This document shows, one piece after another, positions 3,665 to 57,023 of a stretch of DNA of 61,595 bases (position 1 is the first letter of the stretch; every line of letters starts with the position of its first letter). Source of the DNA: Clostridia bacterium (GTDB taxonomy: Bacteria > CBDUZB01 > JAGLHV01). The notes below the pieces were generated by a model that ran no database searches, was not told the origin of the DNA, and saw only the letters and a program-made list of their open reading frames with translations. The DNA lies in NCBI GenBank assembly GCA_030637025.1, contig DAOVVV010000012.1, positions 1-61,595 of the forward strand. Direction: 5' to 3'. The translations under genes were made by a program, and so were the position numbers.

Positions 3665-3712
3665 AAATAAATCGACAAAATAAGAAGAATTATGTTATAT
3701 TAAACATATTAA

Positions 3713-3817
3713 ACTAGGATTTGTTCTTCTTGCCAAACAGAAGTGCCATTTAAAGCAGGTTTCCGGGTTTCATCGTTAAAGTGTCCAAAATGCGGTAAGC
3801 TTATGGGTAAGAAATAA
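3713..3817 (+). pseudogene. Start-less fragment of a small zinc-ribbon protein
   Basis: Frame reads TRICSSCQTEVPFKAGFRVSSLKCPKCGKLMGKK* (two CxxC motifs); upstream in-frame TAA and no start codon. Confidence 0.4.
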
Positions 3818-29907: not shown

Positions 29908-30399
29908 ATGAAGAAAGGATTAAAAGTGTTATTTATGCTTGTTTTTATATTTACAATAAAGGGGATAGTAATAGCATCTAATATGGCTAGCCATCAGGTA
30001 ACAATTAATATAGTTGCTGTTGATGAATTAATTATTTCGGGGGGGAATGTCACCCTGGCTGTTGATTCGTCAATTGAAGAAAATCCATTGAAGGATGTTA
30101 GTGATAATGCTTGCGCTCTTGATTGGATGACTAATTCCGCTACAAATAAAAAAATTACCGGGCAGTTGGATTCTGATTATTCCTGCGGTATTTCATTAGC
30201 AGTAAATGTTGGTGTTGCCGGTGGTAATAGCGTTAGCACAGGAGAGCAAACACTTATTAGTGGAAATGCTGTGGATATTGTTACCGGAATGCATAGTGAA
30301 AATGTTGGGGGTAGTATCATTGGTTATACAATGTCTGCACTTGCAGATTTTCCCGGCAGTGAGACCAGGGCAGTTATTTACACCATTACCGACTATTAG
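29908..30399 (+). CDS. Orphan pilin-like subunit, paralog of 36104 and 36860
   Basis: Shares HQVTINIVAVDELIISGG, CALDWMTNS, KKITGQLD, MH.E and C-terminal IYTITD with the two operon subunits. Confidence 0.8.
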   Translation: MKKGLKVLFMLVFIFTIKGIVIASNMASHQVTINIVAVDELIISGGNVTLAVDSSIEENPLKDVSDNACALDWMTNSATNKKITGQLDSDYSCGISLAVNVGVAGGNSVSTGEQTLISGNAVDIVTGMHSENVGGSIIGYTMSALADFPGSETRAVIYTITDY

Positions 30400-34590: not shown

Positions 34591-34626
34591 TTTTTAATAA
34601 ATAAGATGGGTTATTAAAAGGTGTTT

Positions 34627-34790
34627 AATAAAGGGAAAATATGTTTTTGTCTAAATGCGTAATTTTACCCTGTGGACACGCAAAAATAAGCTAAAAATGA
34701 GCAACTCGCTTTACTCAGACAGGCTCATTTTTTTAACGCATATTTTTACTAAAATTCGCTAAGTCGTTCAAAACTCATTTTGCCTTTATT
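34627..34790. repeat. 164-bp long-hairpin / MITE-like repeat, copy 1
   Basis: 21-bp terminal inverted repeats and nested internal stems; full copy at 49663-49826, right-end fragment at 51220-51265. Confidence 0.85.
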
Positions 34791-34907
34791 GCCTGCCCGC
34801 CAGTCCTTAAGGCGGGTCATTCCTGCGGAAGCAGGAATCTATTGATATTTTAAGAACATTATAGATTCCGCATCATCCTCCGCCTCAGGCGGATGAGGCG
34901 GAGCGGA
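34791..34907. repeat. Cluster of REP-like GC-rich palindromes
   Basis: GCCTGCCCGCCAGTCCTTAAGGCGGGTCATTCC is the reverse complement of about 27733-27766 (one mismatch); CATCCTCCGCCTCAGGCGGA is shared with 27711-27730. Confidence 0.75.
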
Positions 34908-34956
34908 AGGTGTTATTTAGCATAACTCTTAAAATCAATTTAAAAAGGAGGTTAGT

Positions 34957-35307: not shown

Positions 35308-35335
35308 TTGACAAATATTATAAAGGTGATATCTT
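35308..35335 (+). promoter_or_regulatory. Sigma70-like promoter for the riboswitch-pilus operon
   Basis: TTGACA-N16-TATCTT with extended TG. Confidence 0.5.
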
Positions 35336-35404
35336 TATATTGAAAGATGTGATAAAAGTCACAAAAAGATAAAACGGCAATTAAATAAAGCCGTTGTAAT
35401 TTAC

Positions 35405-35487
35405 TCTGATAAGGGCAAACTTCGGGAGACCGAAGGACGCAAAACTGCGGGTCCACAATTATAGTGGAAAGCCGGGTTACCAAAGAG
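35405..35487 (+). ncRNA. c-di-GMP-I (GEMM) riboswitch aptamer
   Basis: AAGGGCAAAC-TTCGG-GAGA-CCGAAG-GACGCAAAAC...GGGTC...AGCCGGGTTACC matches the GEMM consensus, including a GNRA loop and G20. Confidence 0.92.
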
Positions 35488-35502
35488 TGCAAAGAAGTAA
35501 AC

Positions 35503-35544
35503 CCGGGTTAACCGCAAAAAATGCGAAGTGACCCGGTTTTTTTT
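35503..35544 (+). terminator. Intrinsic terminator (riboswitch expression platform)
   Basis: CCGGGTTA...TGACCCGG stem followed by T8. Confidence 0.8.
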
Positions 35545-35571
35545 ATACAGACAAAAAGAGGAAATGAAAGA

Positions 35572-36003
35572 ATGAAAAAACGAATATTTATCTTTTTTGT
35601 GTTTTTTGTGCTTTTTATGTGGGGGAGCAATAGCTATGCTTCTTCTGTTGTTGAGGACAATTCTTTATTATCTGCAACTTCAGGCGATTTTTATCTTCGG
35701 GTAAAGATGCAATTTTTACCCCTTTATTTGGTTTTCCCTGATTTGGATGTTCGCGATGAAGAAAACAAGCCGTTAAAAGATTGCAAAGATTTGTTTTTGA
35801 ATACTATGAATTATAGGGATAATATTTTAAACGTTTGGGGGGTTATCAAAAAAAGACTAAAAATAGGGGATATAAAATTAACTATAATAAACTTAAACAA
35901 ATTACAAATTGCAAGATCCTTCAAATATACAGCATATTCGGATACTGCTGAATACCTTTCTAAAGAAGACCTTTCTTTAAAACTACAAGTTATTCTTTGT
36001 TGA
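35572..36003 (+). CDS. Hypothetical exported protein, first gene after the riboswitch
   Basis: AGAGG RBS; signal peptide MKKRIFIFFVFFVLFMWGSNSYA. Confidence 0.6.
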   Translation: MKKRIFIFFVFFVLFMWGSNSYASSVVEDNSLLSATSGDFYLRVKMQFLPLYLVFPDLDVRDEENKPLKDCKDLFLNTMNYRDNILNVWGVIKKRLKIGDIKLTIINLNKLQIARSFKYTAYSDTAEYLSKEDLSLKLQVILC

Positions 36004-36103
36004 AACCTCTTTTTCCTCAAGGACGTGTCTCTAAGTAAAATCCATTTAAAAAAGTACAAAGCAAAAAATTAAAAAAATAAAATGATTTAAAGGAGGTAGG
36101 AAA

Positions 36104-36595
36104 ATGAAAAAATTAACAATTCTCTTAATAGCAATTGGACTTATACTACAAATAAGCGGGATAGCAATGGCCGCTAACAATGATAATCATCTGGTCACCA
36201 TTACCATAGTTGCGGTAAATGAGCTGGCTATTACCGGGGGTGATATCACCCTGACCATTAATTCCGCAACAGCCGGAAGTGGATTGACTAATGCTACAGA
36301 CAATACTTGTGCACTTGACTGGACGACCAACTCCGGGACGAACAAAAAGATTACCGGGCAGTTAGATACTGATTATTCAGCAGGTATCTCATTATCCGTA
36401 AATGTTACTGTGGCTGGTGGTAATGGTGCTAGTCAGGGGAACCAAGCACTTACTAGTGGTAGTGCAGCGGATTTAGTTCGTGATATGCATAATGAGTTTG
36501 TAAGTGCCAATACTTTAGGTTATACTGCATCAGCTCCTACTGCTTCACCAGTTAGTGAGGCAAAGACTGTTACTTATACAATCCTTGATCAATAA
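36104..36595 (+). CDS. Pilin-like subunit 1 (putative major subunit)
   Basis: Strong AAGGAGG RBS; Sec signal (AMA|A); beta-rich 140-aa mature chain ending VTYTILDQ; followed by a terminator. Confidence 0.7.
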   Translation: MKKLTILLIAIGLILQISGIAMAANNDNHLVTITIVAVNELAITGGDITLTINSATAGSGLTNATDNTCALDWTTNSGTNKKITGQLDTDYSAGISLSVNVTVAGGNGASQGNQALTSGSAADLVRDMHNEFVSANTLGYTASAPTASPVSEAKTVTYTILDQ

Positions 36596-36618
36596 TTAAT
36601 ATATAGACTACAAGGGGG

Positions 36619-36651
36619 AAGGGGGGGGAGAAATCCCCCCTTTATTTTTTT
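36619..36651 (+). terminator. Intrinsic terminator after pilin-like subunit 1
   Basis: AAGGGGGG-loop-CCCCCCTT followed by a T-run. Confidence 0.7.
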
Positions 36652-36859
36652 ATATAGTTGCTGTCTATATAAAAACATTTGAATACTGCTGTTTACCTTT
36701 CTGGGAAAATCTTTCTTTAAAATTAAAATTTATTCTTTATTGAAATTGTTTTTTTCTCAAAAAATAGTTTTCAAAGAAAATAAATTTAAAAAAAAATACA
36801 AAGTAAACAAATTAAATGTTTGACTAAAAAAAGAAAAAATAATATAATTCGAAAAGAGG

Positions 36860-37357
36860 ATGAAAATGAAAAAACTGCTAATTATCTTGATAACAATAGG
36901 AATAGCGTTTCAAATAAACGGGATAGCAATGGCTGCTAATAATGATAATCATCAAGTATCCATTATGGTGGTTGCAATCAATGAATTGGCTATTACCGGA
37001 GGTAATATTACCCTGACCATTAATACCGCAACGGCCGGAAGCGGACTGAACAATGTTACAGATAATACCTGTGCCCTTGATTGGACCACTAACTCCGGTA
37101 CTAACAAAAAAGTTACCGGGCAATTAGATACTGATTATTTGGCGGGTATTACCTTAGCTGTGAATATTACTGTGGCTGGTGGTAACGGTACTAGTCAGGG
37201 GAATCAAACACTTATTAGTGCTTCTGCAGTAGACTTGGTTACGGGAATGCATAATGAATTTGTTAGTGGTAATACCCTTGGTTATACGGCATCAGCTCCT
37301 ACTGTTTCTCCGGTCAGTGAGACTAAGACAGTTACTTATACAGTTATTGACCAGTGA
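36860..37357 (+). CDS. Pilin-like subunit 2 (close paralog of subunit 1)
   Basis: Colinear with and highly similar to the 36104-36595 protein. Confidence 0.7.
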   Translation: MKMKKLLIILITIGIAFQINGIAMAANNDNHQVSIMVVAINELAITGGNITLTINTATAGSGLNNVTDNTCALDWTTNSGTNKKVTGQLDTDYLAGITLAVNITVAGGNGTSQGNQTLISASAVDLVTGMHNEFVSGNTLGYTASAPTVSPVSETKTVTYTVIDQ

Positions 37358-37393
37358 TTGGAGGTGTTTTCTTACCCTCAGGGGTAAGCAATA

Positions 37394-37867
37394 ATGAAGA
37401 AAAAAGTTTTTATTATATCAATTTTGTTATGCTGGTTTTTTATTTTTCCCCGGGGAATATTTGTTTTTGCTGCCTCTTTGAGCGTTACCGGGGGAGATAT
37501 TGTTTTAACTATTTCTACTGCCGTTGCCGGAGGAAATCCGGACCCGGTTACGAGTGAAGTTAACGGACTTAGCTATTGGGCAAATCCTCAAACATATAAA
37601 ATAACTGCAAAAACGAGTTTAGTCGCTCCTCTGTTTACTTTGAGGGTTCTGGCCAAAAATGTTCAAACCGGGGGTAGTGGTAGTGGTGGAACCGCTCAGG
37701 CCCAGATAACTCTGAGTACAACCGACCAGGATATTATTCTGGGTACTACCAGAGGTGTATTAGCTAATCCTCACACTTGTATTCTGGAGTATACTGCTTC
37801 GGCTACAGCAGTGCAGGGAACCGGAAGTGATGTTCATATTATTACTTATACTATTATAAGACAGTAG
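37394..37867 (+). CDS. Pilin-like subunit 3 (divergent; putative minor/tip subunit)
   Basis: Signal peptide; shares TGGDIVLTISTAVAG, KIT, YTASA and ITYTII with the other subunits. Confidence 0.62.
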   Translation: MKKKVFIISILLCWFFIFPRGIFVFAASLSVTGGDIVLTISTAVAGGNPDPVTSEVNGLSYWANPQTYKITAKTSLVAPLFTLRVLAKNVQTGGSGSGGTAQAQITLSTTDQDIILGTTRGVLANPHTCILEYTASATAVQGTGSDVHIITYTIIRQ

Positions 37868-37877
37868 ATAAAGGAAA

Positions 37878-38690
37878 ATGATGATAAAAAATATTGTTAA
37901 AGGGTTTATCTTTTTTTTATTTCTTATTTCAACGGAGGTTTATGCCGGTTTTTCGGTGATAGGGGAATTAACCAGGGAAAGAAATGTACAATGCGGAGAA
38001 AAATTCCAAGAAAGAATTCTTTTAAAAAATAAGGGAAATACTCCCGCTCATGTAAAGATTTATCAAACGGATTATCTTTTTTTTGCTGATGGAAAAAATA
38101 TCTATGGAGAACCAGGGGATATTTCCCGTTCTAATGGTAAGTGGATTACGGTAGATTCCAGTCGGCTTGTTATTCCTCCTAAAAATACTGCTTCTTTTAA
38201 TTACAGTGTCCGGGTACCTCAAAAAAGTGATTTAAAAGGGACATATTGGAGTATAATTATGGTAGAATCAATACCTGCGATAACTCCGGAAAAAGATGAC
38301 AATAAAAAAAGAAAAGGTGAATTCGGTATTCAGACGCGTATACGTTATGGAATACAAATTGTTACCCATATTATGGATACAGGAACCCGTAATATCAAGT
38401 TTTTAGACAAGAAACTAATTAGTAAAAAAGGAAAAAGGATTCTTCAATTGGACATTGGAAATACCGGAGAAAGGCTGCTTGTTCCTTTTGTTTGGGCGGA
38501 GTTTTATAATAAAAACGGTATAAATGTCGGTCGTTTTGAAAGTAAGAAGTTACGGATTTATCCGGAATGTTCGGTAAGGCATAGTATTGATTTAAGTACT
38601 GTGAAGAAGGGCAAATATAAAGTTTTAGTAATAGTTGATAATGAAGATGGATATGTTTTTGGAGCACGATATAATTTAAGGATTAAATAA
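37878..38690 (+). CDS. Putative periplasmic pilus assembly chaperone (PapD-like two-Ig-domain protein)
   Basis: Signal peptide; ILLKNKG, WITV..SRLVIPP, GTYWSIIMVE, RYGIQI, second domain NTGER; lies between the subunits and the large OM protein. Confidence 0.6.
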   Translation: MMIKNIVKGFIFFLFLISTEVYAGFSVIGELTRERNVQCGEKFQERILLKNKGNTPAHVKIYQTDYLFFADGKNIYGEPGDISRSNGKWITVDSSRLVIPPKNTASFNYSVRVPQKSDLKGTYWSIIMVESIPAITPEKDDNKKRKGEFGIQTRIRYGIQIVTHIMDTGTRNIKFLDKKLISKKGKRILQLDIGNTGERLLVPFVWAEFYNKNGINVGRFESKKLRIYPECSVRHSIDLSTVKKGKYKVLVIVDNEDGYVFGARYNLRIK

Positions 38691-41469
38691 TGAAAAGGAT
38701 GTTTTTTATTTTTTTTTTGTTTTATTTTTTTTAAATCCCGCCGAAAGTAAAGAACTTATAGTAAAAGTAAGGTTAAATTCTCCCGAACTTCTAAAAGTAA
38801 ACCCCGGAAAGATTGTTACCTGTAGTTTCCTTGTTTCTAATAATGCTAACCGTAAGGAAAAATTTTTTGAAAAACTAGATCTTCCCAGAGGATGGAAATT
38901 AATTGTTTTTGAACAAACCCCTTTTGAATTAAAATCAAAACAAAAACAGGTTAGAGTAATGGCTTTCTCTGTTCCTCTTTCCTGCCCTGCAGGTCGTTAT
39001 CAGATAACCTATTATGCCGGGAGCCATAGCAATTATAAAGTTACTGATAATGCTTCCTTTTCGGTGTTTGTTTTACCCGTAATAAAGTTGAAGATATTGG
39101 TAGAAAGTAAGCCAGAGGTAGTGGTGGCCGGTGATTCTTATAAAGTAAAATTACGCTTGGTTAATCAAGGCAATAGTAAAAGAGATTTGAAAGTAGAAGT
39201 AAAAGGAATTCCTGATTATCCGATAAAAATGGTGGTATCGGAGATGAGTCTTAAAGCCGGGGAATCTGTGCCGTTCGGGATTGTGGTAAAAACAGATAAA
39301 AGATTAAAGAAGGAAATAAAACATATTCTTACCGTTAAAGCCAGTACAAAAGAATTAAAAAAAGAGGTTGTTTCTAGAAGTACAAGCCAGGTGGTTTTAA
39401 CTGAAATTATACCCAGAGTAACCCGTAAATTTGATCCTTATAATAGAATTCCCTCCCAAATAAAGTTAATTGGTGTAAAGGAGGAGGAAGAGGCTTCTTT
39501 TCAAATAGAATTTTCCGGTTTGGGAAGGTTCGACCCGGAAGGAAAAACAGGAATTGATTTTTTATTTAGGGGAGATGATATTTACAATAAAAGTATTTAT
39601 GGGAAAAGAGATGAATATTATTTAAATTATTATTCTAAATGGTTGGATTTTTTTGTTGGTGACCGGAATTATTCTCTTTCTCCTTTAACCGAAAGGTATA
39701 AATATGGCCGGGGAGCAGAAATAAGTATTTATCCTGCAGATTTTAAATTAGGAACATTTTACTTGAAAAGTAGATGGGAAAATCCCCGGGAAGAAAGGGC
39801 AGGAACGTATATTGAATATAAATTTAATGATTACTTTAATCTAAAAGGAAATTTTTTAAAGAAAGATAAAGAATTATATAATGACAAAATTTGTAGTATC
39901 CAGACACAAATAAAACCGACTGAAAAATTAAATCTTGAGGTGGAATATGGTTATTGTAATAGCCGGCGGGAAGAAAGATCCAGTGATAATGCCTATATTA
40001 TAGATTTCGATGGGGAAGTTTATAACCGGGTATACTATACTCTTAAAAAAATTTATGCTAAACCAAATTTTTTTGGTTATTATAATAATATTGATTATAA
40101 TTCCCAAAGAGTGACTTTTCCGATTTATGATAAATTACGAGGAAATATATCCTACCACAAATATAAGAATAATCTTGACCGGGATGTTCTTCGGGAAGTA
40201 GCGGTAAGAGAAGAATCTTACGAAGCAGAAATCTTTTATCCATTTCAATATGGTATGACTATGTATTTGGATTATAAAGAGTTTAAAAGAAAGGATGAAC
40301 TCCTGCCGGCAGATTATGATTATGGGGAAAACTTATGGAGATTCAGGTTGGAACAGACTTTTCGTAAAGTCAGCATTCATTCTTATATAGAAAGAGGTAT
40401 TTTTGAAAATGAGCTTATAGATAACGAAAATAAATATTTGGAAAGATATTCTTTTTATGCCTATTTTCGTCCTAATTACAAACAATCCTATAGTGTTTAT
40501 ACAAAAATCGGACATGATAGTTTTTCAGGAAACCCTAAAAAAGCAAAAAGTAGCGGGGTTTTAGGCACCTGGCATATTAATAATTTTTATTTTAATTTAA
40601 ACTATAAACACTATAAATGTGATAATCTCCAACAGCATAATGTTTTTTCTAAATTGTTCTATACCCTTCCCAATAAACATTCTTTATCGTTAAGAGGCCA
40701 TTGGTTTAGATATGAAGAAATTAAAGAAGAAAAAACTTCTTTTTTTCTCGTCTATACTATTCCATGGGGAATACCAATAAAGAAAAAAGAATTTATCGGA
40801 AGTATTAAAGGAAAAATTTATGACGGGGAGAAGGGAGAAAAGGTACCTATTGTTAATGTAATTTTAAAAATTAACGGGGCAACGGCAATTAGCGATAAAA
40901 AAGGTAGATTTGTCTTTCCTTCTCTAAAACCGGGAAATTATTTTTTGATGATAGATAAAAGCTCTCTTGGTCCAAATCGCCTTACCGATAAAAAGTTACC
41001 GATGATGGTCCGGGTAAAAGGCGGTAAAGTTACTAAAATTGAAATCGGTATAGTCGATTCCGGCAATATTTCCGGTAAAATAATATTTTTTACGGCTGAA
41101 AAAAAAGGAAATAAAATTTTTAAAAATAATGTGTTTTTAAGCGGTTCCGGTAAAAATAATTATCTTGAAGGGTTTAGTAAGAGTGATCTGAGAAAAGTTG
41201 GGGCACTGAAGAATATACTGGTGGAGATTAATAATGACCGGGAAATTTTTCGTGAAAACACGAATAAAGAAGGAAAGTTTTATTTTAAGAATATAAGACC
41301 TGGAAAATGGACTTTAAAATTTTACGACTATAATTTACCTGCGTATCATTATTTTGAAAAAAATGAATTTCAGGTTGAATTGGAACCAGGAGGGAAAAAG
41401 CAATTTATAATAAGAGTTTTGCCTCAATTGAGACCGGTTAAAATTATTGATGAAGGAGAAATAAGATAG
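38690..41469 (+). CDS. Putative usher-like outer membrane protein; frameshifted in a T10 tract within the signal peptide
   Basis: ATG overlaps the chaperone stop (TAATG). One extra T in 38709-38718 fuses it to the long frame (about 926 aa). Ig-like N-domains, aromatic-rich beta-strand core, C-terminal carboxypeptidase-regulatory-like domains. Confidence 0.6.
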
Positions 41470-41530
41470 GAATTCAATATAAAGCGGGAAAGAAAAATTT
41501 TATTCGGTGATGAATAAAAAAAAGATTATT

Positions 41531-42271
41531 TTAACGAGCCATAAATAACATTGCTATTAAACTTAAACCAATACTTATTTTGGTAAGTGTTTTATTTTCT
41601 TCGTCCGATTTATTGGTTCTTTTTTTTGAGTCTTTCTTTGATTGGAGAGAAGTTTTAGAATATTGGTTGTCGGTTAAGGAAAGTTTAATTTCTTTCCGGA
41701 TAAGTTTTTTTAGTTTGGGAGATTTTTGAATAATTTTACTGATTTTTTTTTCGTTAATACCGGAAGATGGGTTTTCCAGAAGAGTCAGTTGATCTTTTAT
41801 AAAAGTGAGTTCTTTAACTGTTTGTTTGTGATGGGGCATCGTCGCCATTAACAGGGGAAGGTTTTTACGGACTTCTCCCATAATTATGTCCATATTATCA
41901 TTTTTTACCGTATTTTCCCCGGATTTATTTTTTTCTGTGCGTTGTATTTTATTTAATTGAGTTTTCAAAGTAACTATTTTTTTTAGTAATAGCTTTTGAT
42001 ATTGGGTTAATGTTTGATTGAGTTTGTTATATTCGTGTAAAGCTAAAAGTAAATCTTCTCTGGTAACCGTAGCCGTAGGCCGGAAATAACCGCTACCATA
42101 TTTATTTATAAATTTATCTAATACTTTTTGATTATCAAAATCTTTAACTGCTTTCTCTACTTCATGGCCTACATCCTTATAGTCTTTTGCATAAACATTA
42201 AAATTTAAAAGAAACGTACACAATACGGTAAAACCTGATATTAGTAATGTTTTCAGTAATATTTTTGGCAT
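41531..42271 (-). CDS. Exported SLH-like + coiled-coil protein with C-terminal membrane anchor
   Basis: YKDV...KYGSGYFRPTATVTREDLLLAL resembles the SLH motif; C-terminal ISIGLSLIAMLFMAR; paralog at 56154. Confidence 0.65.
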   Translation of the reverse strand: MPKILLKTLLISGFTVLCTFLLNFNVYAKDYKDVGHEVEKAVKDFDNQKVLDKFINKYGSGYFRPTATVTREDLLLALHEYNKLNQTLTQYQKLLLKKIVTLKTQLNKIQRTEKNKSGENTVKNDNMDIIMGEVRKNLPLLMATMPHHKQTVKELTFIKDQLTLLENPSSGINEKKISKIIQKSPKLKKLIRKEIKLSLTDNQYSKTSLQSKKDSKKRTNKSDEENKTLTKISIGLSLIAMLFMAR

Positions 42272-42344
42272 TTTTTACCTCCGTTAAACTTTTGAATTAT
42301 GTATTGCAATCAAAATCCGTCAAAGATAACCCGTATTTTGTGGG

Positions 42345-43388
42345 TTAAAAAAACTCTATGATTAGAGAAATTCTATGTTTATTTCCTAATCGATAAGCAC
42401 CAAAGGCATAGTTAAACTGAAAGCTATGCTTGAAAAATTTCATTTTAATCCCGGTTCCTAATGTCCAGTTGATATGGTTGTTTAATTGAGCTATGTTTCC
42501 ATATCTATCTTCAATGGTGATTTCATCTATGCCGGCTCTTAGACTCAATAAGGAAAGTTTAGAAGAAGGCAGTAAATAATTAAACTCACTGCCTAAATGA
42601 GCACATAATGGCTGTTTTCGAGTTTGTATTAAATCTATAGCACCTAATATAGAGGTTGATTTTTTCTTTAAAAATTTATAACTACTGCCTATTTTAATTC
42701 TTAATGGACTTTTATCTATATGTTGATTGTCCCATTTTAATTCTATTTCTTTTTGTAAAAGAATTCCTAATTTTAAATCCTGGGAGAAAGAATAAATTAA
42801 ACCGGCGTCTAATCCATAACCCAGAGCAGAAGCATCTTTTATTTTAGTAAATTTTTGGGTTATTATTTTTAAATTCCCACCTACTAAAAAATCGTTAGAG
42901 CTCATTAAGCCCAGTACACGGCCGTAAGAAATAAAATAAGCATTTTCCTGGTCACTAAGAGTATCTCTTACTATCTCTCCGGAAGAGTTTATCCAGGTAT
43001 AAGGAATATTGTTGAGACCGCAGTGAATCCAGCTAATGGCAAACGAACCTCCTATTTTTTTCAAACCAATCTTATCTGCGGGTAGTAAAATACTAATAAA
43101 TTGATATTTAGGGGTGATATCTTCTATTCCCTCCCACTTACTCCCGGCTAAAGACTGAATCATTGTGGTTAGAGTGATTTTATTTAAGGTTGCCAATCCG
43201 GCAGGATTCCAGTATGGGGCAGTGGCATCATCACTAAGAGATGTAAAAGCTCCTCCCATACCAAGGGCGCGTGCACCAACGCCAATATTTAAAAAAGCTG
43301 CTGCATTTGTTCCTGCCTGACAGGGGTGGATTGTAAAATATAAAATACAAAGGAAGAAAAATATTCCGGTTATATTTTTAAATTTCAT
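42345..43388 (-). CDS. PorV/PorQ (UPF0164) family outer membrane beta-barrel
   Basis: AAFLNIGVGARALGMGGAFTSLSDDATAPYWNPAGLA signature; C-terminal HRISLIIEFF. Confidence 0.9.
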   Translation of the reverse strand: MKFKNITGIFFFLCILYFTIHPCQAGTNAAAFLNIGVGARALGMGGAFTSLSDDATAPYWNPAGLATLNKITLTTMIQSLAGSKWEGIEDITPKYQFISILLPADKIGLKKIGGSFAISWIHCGLNNIPYTWINSSGEIVRDTLSDQENAYFISYGRVLGLMSSNDFLVGGNLKIITQKFTKIKDASALGYGLDAGLIYSFSQDLKLGILLQKEIELKWDNQHIDKSPLRIKIGSSYKFLKKKSTSILGAIDLIQTRKQPLCAHLGSEFNYLLPSSKLSLLSLRAGIDEITIEDRYGNIAQLNNHINWTLGTGIKMKFFKHSFQFNYAFGAYRLGNKHRISLIIEFF

Positions 43389-43400
43389 TTTTTATTATCC

Positions 43401-44471
43401 TCACTTTCTAAATAAAGCTAATGATTTGTGTTTTCTATGTTCACCGGTTTCATCTTTGGCTATAATTTCGCAAAGATAAATACCGCTGGCTAAATTTTGA
43501 CCGGCATAATCAGTTCCTTCCCATTTATCATTGATATGTTCGCCGACTGACCGTTGTTGTCCTTTGATTACTGTTTTTATTAATTTTCCTCCCATGTCAT
43601 AAATGTTAATAGTTACCCGGGCATTTTGGGATAAAACATATTTAATTACAATTGCCTCTTTATGCGGGTCAAAAGGACTGGGATAAGGAATCATATCGAC
43701 AATTGTCTTGTTTTTCACTGTAAATATTGCTGATTGTGTAGCAGACAGGGGTTCTTTATACCCTGTGTCTTCAACATAAACAGTTACTCTATATCTTTGC
43801 CCTGGTTCTAAGGCATTTTCTTCATATGTATATAAAATTGTTTTTTCGATTGAATTATAAATTTCAGGATGTTCGGATGCTCGAAGCACAAAGATATTAG
43901 TTTCCGGATATTTATCCATAGTTATTGTTAATGAATTTAGGTTTATTCCCATTCCTTCATCAAAAATATCGGCTTTAATAGATGGATGAATACTGGCACA
44001 GCCTTCGTTATCGGGTCGTAAATTAGTAATGCGGGGGGGGTGGTTAGTTTGGATATTTATTTTATACATGCCGGAATAAGGGCTTTCACTTTTAATTCTC
44101 CATTGAATGTAATTATTACTTCCCTCTTCAAAAAAGTCATTTGTTCCGTATATTTGAGTGGGTATAGTAATTTTAAAGCGAATTTGATTGGGTGAATAAG
44201 TGTTATCAACAATTGCATCATCACGCCAGCTATGCCAGTTTTCATAAGAATAACCACTATTGGATATACAGTATTCAATTTCGCTAGTATTTATAGCCGT
44301 GTCCTGCGTTACGGTTATTAGACAGGTTATATTAGTAGTGTTTTGCCATTGGGAGGAAGTAGGATATGGGTCGGTAAAGTTAACTTCAGCATAGGACAAA
44401 TTAGGGTTAAATAGTACTAACAAGAAAAATAAATTCATTTTCCCTAATATATAAAGTATTTTATTAAACAC
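43401..44471 (-). CDS. Secreted Ig-like protein with FlgD-Ig/T9SS-type C-terminal domain
   Basis: Signal peptide; C-terminal YPSPFDP...VTINIYDMGGKLIK...WEG...LASGIY. Confidence 0.8.
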   Translation of the reverse strand: MFNKILYILGKMNLFFLLVLFNPNLSYAEVNFTDPYPTSSQWQNTTNITCLITVTQDTAINTSEIEYCISNSGYSYENWHSWRDDAIVDNTYSPNQIRFKITIPTQIYGTNDFFEEGSNNYIQWRIKSESPYSGMYKINIQTNHPPRITNLRPDNEGCASIHPSIKADIFDEGMGINLNSLTITMDKYPETNIFVLRASEHPEIYNSIEKTILYTYEENALEPGQRYRVTVYVEDTGYKEPLSATQSAIFTVKNKTIVDMIPYPSPFDPHKEAIVIKYVLSQNARVTINIYDMGGKLIKTVIKGQQRSVGEHINDKWEGTDYAGQNLASGIYLCEIIAKDETGEHRKHKSLALFRK

Positions 44472-44512
44472 AGGTTATTTCTCCGTAAGATTGTTTACTT
44501 CTCATTAATTAT

Positions 44513-47500
44513 TTATTTTCCAAAAAGTGCCATAGATTTATACATCCTATGTTTACCATCTTCATTTTTAGCTATAATTTCACAAAAATAAATACCATTA
44601 GCTAAAGGTTGGTTGGCATAATCAGTTCCTACCCATTGATCTTTAGTATGCTCACCGGCTTCCCGTTCCTCGTTTTTAATTATTGTTTTTATTAATTTTC
44701 CGCTGATATCGTAAATGTTAATAGTTATTTTAGAATGTTTAGATAAGACATAGCGGATAGTAAGTGTAATTTTTAACGGGTCAAAAGGGGAAGGGTAAGG
44801 AATAAAATCAATAATTGCTTTTTCTTTAATTATAAAGTTAACTGATTTTTGAGTTTCTTTGGATTGGGAATATCCCAGATCTTTTACTGAAATAGTTACC
44901 GTATATTTTTTTCCGTTTTGTAAAGAACTATTTTGATATAAATAGGAAATTAATCCTTTCGTGGAATTATAAATTTCAGGATGTTCGGATCCGGTTACCG
45001 TGATTATATTACTGCCTTGATATTCATTTAGAATAATGTTTATTGAATCGGGGTCTATTCCTAATCCCTCATCAGATACGGCTGCTTGAATAAAAGGATG
45101 AGCGCCGCTACAGATATCTTCGTTTGGTTGCAGTATGGTTAATTGCGGAGGTTGATTGGTAATTATTTTTATTTGATATGGATTTGATATTCCCTCGTCA
45201 CCGTTGGTATTATTACATTTCCATTTAATGTAATTATTATTTCCTTCATTAAATCCGGTTATGCTAATTTTAAATCCGGCAGTGGTTGGGGTGGTATTAA
45301 TGCATTCAATGTTATTTTGATACCAGGTACCGGGAACAAAAAATGCTTCTATAGAGTTTTCTATCCGATATTTTATAGTGGTGGTATCAACAGCGTTACC
45401 AGTGAGATCAACTACGGTTATTTGGCAAGTTACGGTAGTGCTGTTTTGTTCCTGGGATGAAGTTGGTGATTCATCAGCAAAGTTTATAGGATAGACCAGC
45501 TTTATCCGGAAAGAATAATTTGTATTTACAGACATTAATTTATTTGTTTGGTCCCTTGCTCCGCTAATATTAAAATGATAATCACCGCTGTCGGCAGTGA
45601 TGATTTCACTTATAGTCAAAGTAGAAGTATAAATATCGTATCCTGCCCCTTGACTCCATACTCCTGAGGTAGTTAAAGTATAATCGGTATAAGGAATATT
45701 TTGTCCAAACCTTATTAAGGGGTTGATTGAAGTATTCATTTCTTCACTGAAACTAATGGTTATTTTTATATTCTGATAGCCACTAAAAGGGCTTGCCGGT
45801 TCAAGGAGAAGATTTGTTATGGACGGTATATCTGTATCGATGATAAAAGAGTAAGCAGTATTTTCTATCATAGTATTAGCATTTTCGTCTTTTGCCTGAC
45901 TGATATTAAAACGGTAGTTTCCGTTGCCGGCAGTGATAATTTCCGCTGTCGTCAAGGTAGTAGTGTAAATATCGTATCCCGGCCCCTGGCTCCATATTCC
46001 GACTGTACTTAAGGTGTAATTAGTATAAGGAGCATTATTGCCAAACCTAATTAAAGGATGAATAGATGTATCCATTTCTTCGCTAAAATCAATAGTTATC
46101 TGAATATTCTGGCTTCCGTCAAAAGGGCTGGGAGGATTCAAGCTAAGATTGTTGATTATCGGTTTCTCTCGATCGATGGTAAAAGTATAAATAGTATTTA
46201 CCAGCATAGTGTAATCGTTCTCGTCTTTTGCCTGAGAGATGTTAAAATGATAATTTCCAGTGTCGGCGGTGATAATTTCTGCTGTCGTTAAGGTTATAGT
46301 GTAAATATCGTATCCCGATCCTTGACTCCATACTCCGGCTGTACTTAAGGTATAAGTTTCATAAGGGTTGGTTGTCCCAAACTTTATTATTGGATTGACT
46401 GATGTGTCCATTTCTTTGCTAAAATCAATAGTTATCTGAATATTCTGGTTTCCGTTAAAAGGACTGGAAGGATTTAAACTAAGATTGTCGATTTCAGGTA
46501 AAATTATTGTGCAGCTAAAACTTATTTCTGTCCCTGCGAAACGGTTATTGGCTTTATCTTGAGCTTCTGCTTTAACATAATAGGTATCATTATCCCAAAG
46601 AGGTAAAACAATGTTGTCGTTCCAGGTTACTTCCGTATTGCTCGCGGTGGAGAGATGGGTTGTAGAAAGCCATATAGGAAGGAATGAAACCTGCCAATTA
46701 CTTCCGTCCCAATATCTATTATCACTTCCTCTTTTCAGGTAAAAAACAGTGCTGTTTGCGTTTAGTCCGAGTCCTCCGTTGTTATCAGCTGCTTTGCCTT
46801 CAAAAAAAGAAGGGATAGTATACTGAGTGTAATTTGCACCGTTAACCGGTATAGTTACTGAAGCAGTAATGGGTTGAATGCTATCTATGATTATTGTGCG
46901 ATGAGGACTCCAGGTAGAGGTAGCTGTATGAATGTCTTCTGCTTGTGCTCTCCAGTATCTTATTCCGTCACTTATACTACTGCCTGGTGTCCAGGAAGCA
47001 TTGTTTCCACTGGAAACCTGCGGCGAACTTCCATTATCCAAGATGGCGGTAAACCCGGCATCAGAAGCAATTTGAAAATTAATTTGCCCTATATTTACAT
47101 CAGGGTCGGAATAAAGGGCAGTTAAAGTGGGGGTATTATTATTGCTAATAAACCCGTTTACCGGACTTACCAGAGAAGGAATATCAGGGGCGTTGTTTTG
47201 AAACTCAAAAAGAATAGCCATATTATTTTCAAGGGAAGCGGTGTTATAAGAATATTGCAGGCCAGTATTACCAGTGTCATTTTCTATTCCCACTGTTGCG
47301 GAGAGACCATAATCCAGAAAAAAAGTATTAAAAATTACATCATCATATTGGAATTTTATTGCATTGGTTGTTTCGAATAATATTATTTGAAAGGTTATAT
47401 ACCGGTTGTCTCTATCTTTGTGATTAATTTTTTCGTATTGAATTAAAAGATATTTATCAGAGGCCCCTTCTTTTGTTTCGTAATAAATTGACCCGGCAGT

Positions 47501-47887
47501 GTCTAAGTCGTCCCAGAAGGGGACGATAATGTTGTTGGGTGCGTCACTATTAGGTATTGATTCGTTGGTATTAGGCAGGGATGCATTATTTAGCAGTATT
47601 CCACCGTTATTGCCGATGTAAAATGCTGTATAGTCATTTCCGTAGAAATTAAAAGTGAAACCAATGTCAAATGGGCCTTTGACTTCGTCGTCTGTACGTG
47701 TTCCGATATCAGTTCCTGTTGAGGAAATATCGTCCCAGGCATAAGTTGTTTTGGGTTCAGGATCGTTACTATCTGTCCATATATAACCATAAGCATCCGG
47801 CCCCCCCTGGCTGGCATTTGTTAGCTGGATATTAATGTTTAATCCGGTTATTATTACAGCTATCAAAATTGTTAGTTTTTTCTTCAT
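44513..47887 (-). CDS. Large secreted adhesin-like protein (GGPD..GY N-domain, Ig-like repeats, FlgD-Ig/T9SS-type CTD)
   Basis: Signal MKKKLTIL; GGPDAYGY and FGFTFNFYG/PFWDDL domain; three 112-aa repeats; C-terminal YPSPFDP...NGIYFCEI. Confidence 0.82.
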   Translation of the reverse strand: MKKKLTILIAVIITGLNINIQLTNASQGGPDAYGYIWTDSNDPEPKTTYAWDDISSTGTDIGTRTDDEVKGPFDIGFTFNFYGNDYTAFYIGNNGGILLNNASLPNTNESIPNSDAPNNIIVPFWDDLDTAGSIYYETKEGASDKYLLIQYEKINHKDRDNRYITFQIILFETTNAIKFQYDDVIFNTFFLDYGLSATVGIENDTGNTGLQYSYNTASLENNMAILFEFQNNAPDIPSLVSPVNGFISNNNTPTLTALYSDPDVNIGQINFQIASDAGFTAILDNGSSPQVSSGNNASWTPGSSISDGIRYWRAQAEDIHTATSTWSPHRTIIIDSIQPITASVTIPVNGANYTQYTIPSFFEGKAADNNGGLGLNANSTVFYLKRGSDNRYWDGSNWQVSFLPIWLSTTHLSTASNTEVTWNDNIVLPLWDNDTYYVKAEAQDKANNRFAGTEISFSCTIILPEIDNLSLNPSSPFNGNQNIQITIDFSKEMDTSVNPIIKFGTTNPYETYTLSTAGVWSQGSGYDIYTITLTTAEIITADTGNYHFNISQAKDENDYTMLVNTIYTFTIDREKPIINNLSLNPPSPFDGSQNIQITIDFSEEMDTSIHPLIRFGNNAPYTNYTLSTVGIWSQGPGYDIYTTTLTTAEIITAGNGNYRFNISQAKDENANTMIENTAYSFIIDTDIPSITNLLLEPASPFSGYQNIKITISFSEEMNTSINPLIRFGQNIPYTDYTLTTSGVWSQGAGYDIYTSTLTISEIITADSGDYHFNISGARDQTNKLMSVNTNYSFRIKLVYPINFADESPTSSQEQNSTTVTCQITVVDLTGNAVDTTTIKYRIENSIEAFFVPGTWYQNNIECINTTPTTAGFKISITGFNEGNNNYIKWKCNNTNGDEGISNPYQIKIITNQPPQLTILQPNEDICSGAHPFIQAAVSDEGLGIDPDSINIILNEYQGSNIITVTGSEHPEIYNSTKGLISYLYQNSSLQNGKKYTVTISVKDLGYSQSKETQKSVNFIIKEKAIIDFIPYPSPFDPLKITLTIRYVLSKHSKITINIYDISGKLIKTIIKNEEREAGEHTKDQWVGTDYANQPLANGIYFCEIIAKNEDGKHRMYKSMALFGK
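45500..46500 (-). repeat. Three tandem 336-bp intragenic repeats
   Basis: AAGATT(G/T) anchors at 46481, 46145 and 45809 (336-bp period); protein repeat NLSLNPSSPF.G.QNI.ITI.FS.EM.TS. Confidence 0.85.
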
Positions 47888-47916
47888 TTTAATTATTTTC
47901 CCTTTTAAAATGCATG

Positions 47917-47960
47917 AAAATAAAAATACCGGATTACCTTTAATATTTTCGGTAACCCGG
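47917..47960 (-). terminator. Intrinsic terminator built from the aptamer 3' strand
   Basis: Minus strand CCGGGTTACC-N12-GGTAATCCGG-TATTTTTATTTT. Confidence 0.75.
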
Positions 47961-48033
47961 CTATCCGTTATTACATAACAATGGATCACGAGGCTTTGCG
48001 TCTCTCAATTACTTGAGATTTGCCTTTTCGTTT
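47948..48033 (-). ncRNA. c-di-GMP-I (GEMM) riboswitch aptamer
   Basis: Minus strand GAAAAGGCAAA-TCTCAA-GTAA-TTGAGA-GACGCAAAGCC...GGATAGCCGGGTTACCG. Confidence 0.92.
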
Positions 48034-48064
48034 GATTGATTATTTATAGACATTCTTTATTATA

Positions 48065-48092
48065 ATTATAGCACAAATCTATAAATTGTCAA
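48065..48092 (-). promoter_or_regulatory. Consensus sigma70 promoter upstream of riboswitch 2
   Basis: Minus strand TTGACA-N16-TATAAT with extended TG. Confidence 0.75.
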
Positions 48093-48503
48093 TCAGGATA
48101 TAATCTGTGAGAAATAACGCCTTAAATCCGATATTGAAAAAAGGAGACAGCCGAGAAACGACAAAAAAGAATTCACCAAATAGGTAAAAAAGGCATAAAA
48201 ATCCCTCACTATTTAGTATAATAATATCCTAATCAAACATTGTTATACCGACAAACAAAAAAGAATAGAGAAGTAAATGTATTATGACAAAAAACGTATA
48301 AGAATTCAAGTTAAAATTTTTTGAATGTCAGAAGAATATCTGACACTATCTTCAAATAGTGTCATTTGCAAATTACAGGTAACGGACATTTATTGACAAA
48401 TTGAGATAATTTTGATAAGATTCGATTGTCCTGGTAAAGAAAAAACGATAAAGATTTGTTATTTAATTCATAGAAAGATAAATTTGAAAGGGTTGTTATA
48501 GTT

Positions 48504-49419: not shown

Positions 49420-49667
49420 AAATTACCGGATATTTTTAGAAGAGATAAATAATTCTGCAACGGGAGAATATTTTCACCAATTCTAATAACGAAGATGTGG
49501 AGGTAATGATATTTGTAGTACGGGATAACTTACCACTAAACAGCGATACATCTTTAATCTGGGATGGTCGTAATAATAGTGGGAGTTGTGTAAGTGGTAA
49601 GGTATAGGTATATCAAATTAAAATAGGTGGTAAAGTGTTTAACGGGAGGGTAGTGGTGGCAAAATAA
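49420..49667 (+). pseudogene. Decayed remnant of an FlgD-Ig/gliding-motility-type C-terminal domain
   Basis: SLIWDGRNNSGSCVSGKV*VYQIKIGGKVFNGRVVVAK*; no intact upstream frame. Confidence 0.65.
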
Positions 49668-49826
49668 AGACAAAATATGTTTTTCTCTAAACGCGTAATT
49701 TTACCCTTCGGGCACATAAAAATAAGCTAAAAATGAGCAACTCGCTTTGCTCAGACATGCTCATTTTTTTAACGCATATTTTTATTAAAATTCGCTAAGT
49801 CGTTCAAAACACATTGTGTCTTTATT
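49663..49826. repeat. 164-bp long-hairpin / MITE-like repeat, copy 2
   Basis: Colinear with 34627-34790; terminal inverted repeats AATAAAGACA...TGTCTTTATT. Confidence 0.85.
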
Positions 49827-50010
49827 TTTATATGACATGAAAAAGTGTGACCCATTTTATGTCAAGACAGCTTTAATGTATTAAGGATATACAAAAATTC
49901 TCTACTTGCCAAAAATAAATTTTAAGTATATAATAACTTTTACCCAAAATTTTAAAAAAAATGAACACTTTAAATGTTAAAAAGATAATATTTGTGATGA
50001 GGGAGGTTTT

Positions 50011-56153: not shown

Positions 56154-57023
56154 ATGAAACAAAGGATTTTAAAAGTAGTATTGATGTTAGGTCTGTTGAT
56201 TTTGCCAATGAAACTTAATGCTCAAGAGTATAAAGATGTCAAGCCTAAGATTAGAAATATAATTAGAAAGTTTAAAACGAATGGGGTGTTAAACAGTTTT
56301 ATTGGTAAATATGGAAAAGGATATTTTCGTCCAACAGCAACGATAAAAAGGGAAGATTTGCTAGTGGCTCTTTATGAATATGATAAATTTACTCGTACTT
56401 TAATGGAATATCAAAAAGTGTTGGATAAAAAAGTGCGTAATTTAACTACTCAATTAAATAAAACAAAACAGCAGTTGGCTGTTTTGCAAAAAGGAGGAGT
56501 AGGTAAAGAGAATATGGGTATGATATTATCTGAAATTAAAAAAGAATTACCATTGCTGGCAAAAGGCGGAGCTTTAACTCAAAAAACCGAACAGAGGATT
56601 GATCTTTTAGAGGAAAAAATAGATTTTTTAAGTGCAGGAAAAGGTGGAAAAACCACTAGTGTGGGTGCAATTAGCCGAATTATTCGTACTTCTCCTCAAG
56701 TTAAAATGGTGATAAGAAAAGAGGTTAAGGCAGTACTAGATAAAAGTTCTTCATCAATGCAGGTAAGGGGTTCGGTAGATATGAAAAAAATTATCAGAGA
56801 GGTTCGGAAAGATTTACCTCGTTTAATGGGTAATATTCCTATTCCTAAAAAAATACGGGCAGAATTTATTGCGGTGAAGGAAAAAATGAGTTTATTAGAA
56901 GAACTTAGTGAAGAAATAGGAGAAGATATGTTTGCTAATATGCTTAGTAATTCCCGTAAAGTTAAAAAAGCCCTGAGCAAAGAAGTTCGGAAAATTAATT
57001 CCAGAAGAAGAAAAAGAAAATAG
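56154..57023 (+). CDS. Exported SLH-like + coiled-coil protein, paralog of 41531-42271
   Basis: YKDV...KYGKGYFRPTATIKREDLLVALYEY; internally repeated helical module; basic C-terminus. Confidence 0.65.
   Translation: MKQRILKVVLMLGLLILPMKLNAQEYKDVKPKIRNIIRKFKTNGVLNSFIGKYGKGYFRPTATIKREDLLVALYEYDKFTRTLMEYQKVLDKKVRNLTTQLNKTKQQLAVLQKGGVGKENMGMILSEIKKELPLLAKGGALTQKTEQRIDLLEEKIDFLSAGKGGKTTSVGAISRIIRTSPQVKMVIRKEVKAVLDKSSSSMQVRGSVDMKKIIREVRKDLPRLMGNIPIPKKIRAEFIAVKEKMSLLEELSEEIGEDMFANMLSNSRKVKKALSKEVRKINSRRRKRK

Follow-up and report, generated by a model that had tools for sequence, protein, structure and literature searches.

Two convergent surface gene cassettes behind class I c-di-GMP riboswitches of predicted opposite direction in a genus of an uncultured phylum

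Does an uncultured seafloor bacterium that sets a pilus and a secreted adhesin face to face, each behind a riboswitch for the same second messenger, switch both on together or exchange one for the other? The question is raised by a locus at positions 35308..48092 of contig DAOVVV010000012.1 (assembly GCA_030637025.1), within a 61,595-nt stretch of DNA that was analysed whole and is called the window here. A first-pass annotation had read this locus as a self-contained system in which two operons, bracketed by class I cyclic di-GMP (c-di-GMP-I) riboswitches, pair an atypical pilus with a type IX secretion system (T9SS)-like adhesin under one signal. The geometry is borne out: six plus-strand genes face four minus-strand genes tail to tail at about 41.5 kb, with ends 61 bases apart (41469 and 41531), and the bracketing aptamers both exceed the Rfam gathering score. 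The arrangement is real, yet it is not a self-contained, co-activated system. Comparisons were made between the genome under study (G000) and three congeners (G001, G002 and G003), and counts out of four include G000.

The Rfam scan of the whole window returned exactly two RNAs, both c-di-GMP-I aptamers. The first, RS1 (35405..35485, plus strand), scores 67.5 bits with the c-di-GMP-I model RF01051 and 63.5 bits with RF03167, and has an orthologue in all three congeners; the second, RS2 (47948..48034, minus strand), scores 64 bits with RF01051 and has an orthologue in G001. The covariance-model check suggested at the outset is thereby answered for both, the gathering cut-off of RF01051 being 35 bits. 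Motif mapping, with positions that we take to follow Vc2 numbering, places G20, A47 and C92 in both ligand pockets, and these canonical contact bases uphold the class assignment of both leaders; RS1 scores with the GGC-variant model RF03167 yet has A at 47. Specificity for cyclic GMP-AMP (cGAMP) was rejected for RS1 and RS2, since both carry G20 and A20 marks cGAMP binders; the effect of the G20A change is described in PMC7288161. No class II c-di-GMP aptamer was found within the window by the Rfam scan, and no genome-wide class II search was made.

The expression platforms that follow the two aptamers are predicted to act in opposite directions. That of RS1 (35501..35544, plus strand) is a free-standing terminator hairpin with a T8 tract, which folds alone at −15 to −17 kcal/mol in four of four genomes; its 5' arm can pair with the aptamer instead, and in folded transcription intermediates the aptamer does pair with this arm, as an antiterminator. 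The pairing covaries, aptamer CTGCGG standing opposite hairpin CCGCAG (5/6 in G000) and, in five paralogues, CTACGG opposite CCGTAG or CTGTAG. Because ligand would free the terminator, RS1 is predicted to be an OFF switch. In the platform of RS2 (47917..47947, minus strand) the only partner of the terminator arm is the 3' strand of the aptamer itself (10/10 pairs in G000 and G001), the downstream-only fold reaching −0.7 kcal/mol, and RS2 is predicted to be an ON switch because ligand would block a terminator that needs this strand. We infer that both RNAs bind c-di-GMP and switch in these directions, and the joint activation implied by the first-pass annotation finds no support in platforms that are predicted to oppose each other. 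Three points weigh against the predicted logic: the T tract is weak in G001, one ON-like switch has a hexamer match of 5/6, and the folding of the platforms takes in no kinetics.

The reach of RS1 also appears to be short. An intrinsic-terminator-like hairpin follows pilin 1 (36618..36652, stem 36618-36643, plus strand; present in four of four genomes, with a T tract directly behind it in three), and an internal promoter-like site (36820..36848, plus strand, 11/12), whose hexamers and spacing are invariant in all four, would serve pilin 2 to usher without a riboswitch. This conserved hairpin and promoter suggest that RS1 governs only open reading frame (ORF) A and pilin 1. ORF A (35572..36003, plus strand) encodes an exported protein of 143 amino acids with no assigned function and no Pfam or NCBIfam match; paralogues lie on contig C69 and in loci L030-L033 and follow other riboswitches of the genus, and the gene was not found in 21 pilus-cassette loci of other lineages. 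Of the two operons first described, then, the two convergent gene sets stand; the internal hairpin, the internal promoter-like site and a promoter-like site before the minus-strand SLH-like gene (42323-42296, minus strand, 10/12), which may have its own promoter, speak against two undivided units.

At the outer ends, the promoters noted earlier correspond to sigma-70-type promoter-like sites with an extended −10 element, one at 35308..35335 (plus strand, 10/12, −35 hexamer invariant in four of four genomes) and one at 48065..48092 (minus strand, 12/12). A scan for such sites gave 63 against 53.4 ± 6.6 in shuffles, so that only their position, score and conservation are informative. Just past the left promoter, at 35348..35363, lies a perfect TGTGA-N6-TCACA palindrome, which we take to be a CRP/FNR-type operator and whose half-sites are both invariant in four of four genomes. 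The genome holds three perfect copies where 0.42 are expected (35348-35363, C69:2336-2351 and C6:7418-7433); two of the three precede ORF-A-type riboswitch leaders, on which these boxes are a candidate second, protein-level layer of control. A shared bidirectional terminator at the 41469/41531 junction was rejected, the best folds reaching only −5.5 and −4.8 kcal/mol. Likely start codons were revised: the first plus-strand gene probably begins at 35572 and the large gene of the minus strand at 47887. The export signals ascribed to all ten products were recovered as a basic-then-hydrophobic N-terminus in the nine proteins examined, by crude hydropathy rather than a signal-peptide predictor; the tenth, the usher, has its start out of frame. 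Multi-copy intergenic repeats occur at about 34620-34930, 48120-48260 and 49660-49830, with many matches in all three congeners.

Gene order and structural models identify the plus side as a divergent, unnamed chaperone-usher pilus family, which agrees with the atypical pilus proposed for this strand. Major pilin 1 (36104..36595, plus strand, 163 amino acids) has an immunoglobulin (Ig)-like fold with a free N-terminal donor strand: the monomer is modelled as an incomplete Ig fold plus this strand, and the trimer as a donor-strand polymer (0.84 against 0.00 for the best control). Major pilin 2 (36860..37357, plus strand) is 80% identical to it, and a third, stand-alone copy (29908..30399, plus strand, 54-56% identical) lies outside the locus and has orthologues in G001 and G002. 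The minor subunit (37394..37867, plus strand) lacks a donor strand, the pilin profile matching it only from position 40 on; a gene for at least 140 amino acids occupies its place in 14 of 17 other loci, and the protein is a probable tip or initiating subunit. The chaperone-like protein (37878..38690, plus strand, 270 amino acids) has no membrane anchor and no Pfam match over cut-off, PapD included. Its position and size fit a chaperone, its gene adjoins pilin and usher in 20 of 21 other loci, and its Atlas neighbours are unnamed, one cluster having PF11797 (WxLIP_HBD) in 14% of its members. For the usher-like outer-membrane protein (38690..41469, plus strand) an in-frame relative, P0037 (78% identical), was modelled. 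Its model has two Ig domains, a barrel sequence of 26 consecutive strands uninterrupted by any inserted domain, and two sandwich domains; the top structure matches of this model (predicted template-modelling score 0.62) are FimD and PapC.

Sequence profiles gave little for this family. The pilin subunit has no Pfam match, and its profile found nothing significant among the sequences of solved structures (best E-value 0.056). The fimbrial usher family PF00577 has no match in G000, in a search whose control was positive in 2 of 14 genomes, and does not figure among 25 listed of the 27 families of 33 relatives. No two-domain tip adhesin was found in the pilus cassette. Relatives of the pilin form 2,738 clusters at 50% identity, under record titles that name Zixibacteria, Ignavibacteria, Nitrospirae, Deltaproteobacteria, Opitutaceae and Chlamydiae, and the profile matches only four genes in G000, none of them on the minus side of the locus. 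In L053-L056 (three records titled Chlamydiae, one untitled), extra pilin-family genes follow the usher, one of them within an 800-residue protein. No description of this pilus family was found in the open-access literature.

The usher gene is frameshifted at its start. Its ATG at 38690 overlaps the chaperone stop codon and opens a frame only 14 codons long, shifted by one base from the 916-codon main frame. The first-pass annotation had given this protein an export signal after frame correction; the start is indeed out of frame, and the frameshift is a conserved feature, beyond mere correction. Nineteen bases past the ATG, in the signal-peptide region, lies a T10 tract (38709..38718, plus strand), the candidate slippage site, which is invariant in four of four genomes. 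In G000, G001 and G003 the ATG is displaced from the main frame by one base; in G002 the two agree, the extra base there lying outside the run. Between the run and the first internal ATG, 80 codons contain no stop or gap and have dN/dS values of 0.21-0.62 (six pairs). G000 contains 42 A/T runs of at least 10 bases, against 1,749 of length 8, and the usher tract is its only T10 with a frameshift signature. PMC1088944 gives a conserved run length as a criterion for purposeful transcriptional slippage; by this measure slippage is favoured, and the sequence comparison suggests that usher expression depends on it. Since the run lies in the signal-peptide region, the unshifted product would be a 14-residue peptide.

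Other origins of the frameshift were considered. Assembly error was rejected because the frameshift recurs in three species-level genomes whose flanking bases differ; contigs of runs X1 and X4, possible sources of this DNA, span it without a gap, in a comparison that masks 38696-38736 as repeat. Translation from the internal ATG at 38959 was rejected as it would lose the export signal and because the 80 upstream codons are conserved, and homopolymers showed no genome-wide decay (runs of at least 9 gave 11 loose candidates, only one of them a T10). Gene callers truncate such ushers, as in the 836-residue calls P0036 and P0038. Among 19 ushers of other lineages, a count that excludes L055 and L028, 16 start in frame; L043 is out of frame, the layout of L037 is ambiguous, and the break in L056 lies elsewhere. 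At L043:5612-5660 a T8 lies in the signal-peptide region and the start codon is displaced from the main frame just as in G000; the L037 usher (3700-3780) also has a T8 in this region, and the break in L056 is without a long run.

On the minus side, the T9SS-like exported proteins first described are confirmed as two tail-bearing proteins and a PorV-family barrel. The largest, an adhesin-like protein of 1124 amino acids (44513..47887, minus strand), consists of an N-terminal domain, three 112-residue repeats, a module shared with its neighbour and a T9SS type A-like tail. The neighbour (43401..44471, minus strand, 356 amino acids) is 46% identical to the C-terminal third of the larger protein, the common module ending in the type A-like tail in both; it matches TIGR04183 at 28.2 bits (cut-off 23), and FlgD_ig over cut-off. 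TIGR04183 is over cut-off in both proteins, and PF18962 in one and just under it in the other. The adhesin N-terminal domain has no match among solved-structure sequences. Its repeat number varies, with a 1574-residue frame in G001 and a contig from run X6 that is shorter by one repeat; among seep-population contigs, the variable segments are 46132-46469 and 46865-47194, a 336-base repeat being skipped in the X6 contig and substitutions clustering at 46.9-47.2 kb in X1 and X4. The architecture of the two tail-bearing proteins suggests that they would act in adhesion.

The barrel (42345..43388, minus strand) is PorV/PorQ-like (NF033709, E-value 7.6e-23, 81.6 bits, cut-off 90) and falls far below the cut-off of the PorV equivalog model. 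G000 contains 32 PorV-family matches from about 30 loci, many beside their own cargo, and a 1734-residue frame on contig C73 matches SprA in four pieces (best E-value 2.6e-17, below cut-off). GldM and PorU (Peptidase_C25) were not found in G000 in searches whose controls were silent, GldK, GldL and GldN having been left out of the search. The last minus-strand gene (41531..42271) encodes an exported protein with a weak SLH match (E-value 0.0087, below cut-off), a charged helical middle and a hydrophobic C-terminal tail; it has only eight relatives, 48-100% identical, and is a possible envelope tether. A paralogue (38%) at 56154-57023 precedes genes for an FHA-domain protein and a PP2C phosphatase.

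How firmly are the two sides linked? The usher-SLH-PorV junction lies on a single contig in G001 and G003; in G002 the contig breaks off within the usher. Of the congeners, G001 alone yielded the large adhesin and RS2; neither was found in G002 or G003 (89% and 86% complete), and no aptamer lies in the 807 bases that precede metF in G002. Among 21 loci of other lineages with the same cassette, surveyed with flanks of up to 10 kb, some shorter, a PorV-like gene occurs in two, a tail match in five and both in none. A c-di-GMP riboswitch was found in none of the 16 such loci scanned (L053-L056 lay outside the scan), nor in the whole genomes G038 and G007. The synteny check that had been proposed therefore does not reveal a conserved pairing, which by sequence comparison is genus-level at most. 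No description of the arrangement was found in the open-access literature, in line with the first-pass annotation.

The claim of a self-contained locus likewise finds no support at the level of the genome, which holds 16 such aptamers, the 32 PorV-family matches, the SprA-like gene on C73 and the third pilin copy at 29908-30399. G000 (2.36 Mb, 97.8% complete) belongs to a phylum of four genomes, all of one genus; the presence of Omp85 indicates a diderm organism. The reads that match it best come from cold-seep metagenomes, four of them possibly its source, with weaker matches in two further studies. Congeners carry 19 (18 over cut-off), 13 and 13 c-di-GMP-I aptamers, and motif searches of G000 gave 7 GGDEF and 4 HD-GYP frames. 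Its aptamers precede PilX-like, Tad-like, pilin-like or tail-bearing genes in 15 of 16 cases, on a reading of the translations, and 11 of the 16 have another aptamer at most 15 kb away (2.2 on average at random; P about 1e-4). The locus forms a single island in this genome-wide riboswitch regulon. Another convergent island, likewise with a c-di-GMP-I aptamer at either end but with unrelated subunits, lies at C58:5002-15397.

Several features of these other islands were recorded. The plus strand of the C58 island carries a tail-bearing 822-residue gene and a PorV-like gene, and its minus strand pilin-like, chaperone-like, tail-bearing and OmpA-like genes, the subunits having no match to the pilin profile of our locus. 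The operon behind the aptamer at C5:27023 (minus strand) contains a 199-residue pilin-like gene, then a 581-residue gene with the same N-terminal strand and a T9SS-like tail, and a 1246-residue gene with a pilin-like domain at its end. A20, the mark of 3'3'-cGAMP binders, is present in three of the 16 aptamers, at C58:5002 (plus strand), C1:23957 (minus strand) and C77:21733 (plus strand). Serine or threonine after the GH motif of a GGDEF domain is presumably the signature of a cGAMP synthase; all seven GGDEF domains, one without the usual G-D, have N or D there, and no obvious cGAMP synthase is therefore present.

The model that we propose starts from aptamers, gene anatomy, folds, frameshift conservation and platform base-pairing, all established by computation, and takes the locus to be one of several surface islands led by riboswitches, in which two surface cassettes of independent evolutionary origin adjoin and c-di-GMP acts on them oppositely. 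Pilus subunits would be exported by Sec and held by the periplasmic chaperone; at the usher, the N-terminal strand of each subunit would fill the groove of the next, and the subunit without a donor strand would start the fibre. Usher synthesis would require an additional base in the T10 tract of the transcript (or the chromosome), and the usher would be scarce because only the fraction with this base yields it. The two tail-bearing proteins would leave by a reduced type-IX-like route, through the SprA-like pore encoded elsewhere in the genome and with a dedicated PorV-like partner; this route, like slippage, is one that we infer. At high c-di-GMP, RS1 would terminate, giving less ORF A and pilin 1, and RS2 would read through to the adhesin; at low c-di-GMP both would reverse. 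The cell thus probably swaps one surface coat for the other rather than switching both on. As a joint claim covering opposite control, pilus route, slippage-limited usher and reduced secretion route, the model is in our judgement moderately probable. A bolder form of it is tentative and more doubtful: that a widespread, unnamed branch of chaperone-usher pili, with plugless 26-strand ushers rationed by slippage, alternates with a motor-less SprA-PorV adhesin, the two being toggled by a class I OFF/ON pair as a coat switch made of RNA only.

Canonical ligand bases in both leaders, the usher-SLH-PorV junction found on one contig in G001, in G003 and in X4 (a possible source of this DNA), and the same convergent geometry on C58 would also suit one self-contained attachment locus at which c-di-GMP switches pilus and adhesin on together and selection keeps the linkage. 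We consider this improbable, given platforms predicted to be opposite, an internal terminator and promoter, the pairing in 0/21 and the riboswitch in 0/16 of the loci compared, the large adhesin and RS2 having been found in no congener other than G001, and the G002 metF upstream region without aptamer. More improbable still is that the two sides form one machine in which the tail-bearing proteins or the PorV/SLH pair supply a missing tip or anchor. The pilus cassette does lack a two-domain tip adhesin, and other operons of G000 mix pilin-like, chaperone-like and tail-bearing genes; none of the four pilin-profile matches, however, is on the minus side, the cassette lacks these neighbours at all 21 other loci, and opposite regulation would separate the two sides in time.

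Phase-variable surface genes classically have a homopolymer in the signal-peptide region, and the T10 tract could be a phase switch in the DNA itself or an indel that abolished function long ago, so that most cells would lack usher and pilus and three assemblies would have caught the OFF state. G002, being in frame, fits such a switch, and contigs drop rare variants, with 38696-38736 masked in the read comparison. Against it, the run is exactly 10 in four of four genomes, the in-frame one included, which by the criterion of PMC1088944 favours slippage; against an old pseudogene, the full-length body is intact in all three frameshifted genomes at synonymous divergence of up to 0.36. In pairwise distances G000 is the most distant for metF and usher, chaperone and cyclophilin not being clear-cut, and shared descent of the frameshift is likely from these sequences. 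A phase switch or lost gene is accordingly held to be unlikely, and slippage within two oppositely controlled cassettes is the reading that we retain.

Worth following up are the unnamed chaperone-usher family, the conserved slippage-type frameshift and the OFF/ON pair of same-class riboswitches; the convergent layout by itself matters little. The pilus family, which the standard usher profile misses, is the larger result, with 2,738 subunit clusters that have no Pfam name. Should the barrel indeed work without an inserted plug, it would be a natural test of usher gating, and the chaperone may link classical and WxL-type donor-strand systems. For an uncultured phylum, the riboswitch pair offers a compact model of how two surface structures may be controlled reciprocally, and one open to direct test.

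The system resembles chaperone-usher pili in its gene order (subunit-subunit-chaperone-usher), its Ig-like subunit with an N-terminal donor strand and, in models, a large barrel followed by two sandwich domains; by subunit fold the nearest known class is the alternate (CFA/I, CS1/CS17) pili, and FimD and PapC are the nearest ushers. Whereas a classical usher has a 24-stranded barrel with an inserted plug domain, this one has 26 predicted strands, no inserted domain, two N-terminal Ig domains and 8-10% identity, and the system differs from classical pili in having no Pfam usher match and no two-domain tip adhesin. A report on the WxL/Elr pilus of Enterococcus faecalis (bioRxiv 10.64898/2026.10.17.759780) describes donor-strand exchange guided by a non-PapD chaperone, in a system confined to Bacillota with a membrane-anchored chaperone, a sortase anchor and no usher. 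WxL is the nearest named Atlas cluster to our pilin (0.91), and PF11797 occurs in the chaperone neighbour cluster mentioned above; the likeness comes solely from the Atlas, no Pfam match to WxL (PF13731) or DUF916/DUF3324 having been found, and here the chaperone has no membrane anchor and an usher is present. With type IX secretion the locus shares type A-like C-terminal tails, a PorV-family barrel and a SprA-like gene in the genome; it differs in its roughly 30 PorV-family loci, in GldM and PorU not being found (controls silent) and in its four-genome phylum.

As in Citrobacter tssM, a tested case of transcriptional slippage (PMC4256274), and Shigella mxiE (PMC1088944), two frames of a gene related to secretion meet at a homopolymer 9-11 bases long; here the run lies in the signal-peptide region of an usher, and slippage is a candidate proposed from sequence. 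The regulon, finally, recalls that of Clostridioides difficile, for which PMC6200980 gives 16 predicted c-di-GMP riboswitches, class I being OFF and class II ON. Both genomes have 16 predicted switches, with OFF and ON responses found there and predicted here; unlike in C. difficile, both directions are here predicted to arise from class I aptamers, through different expression platforms.

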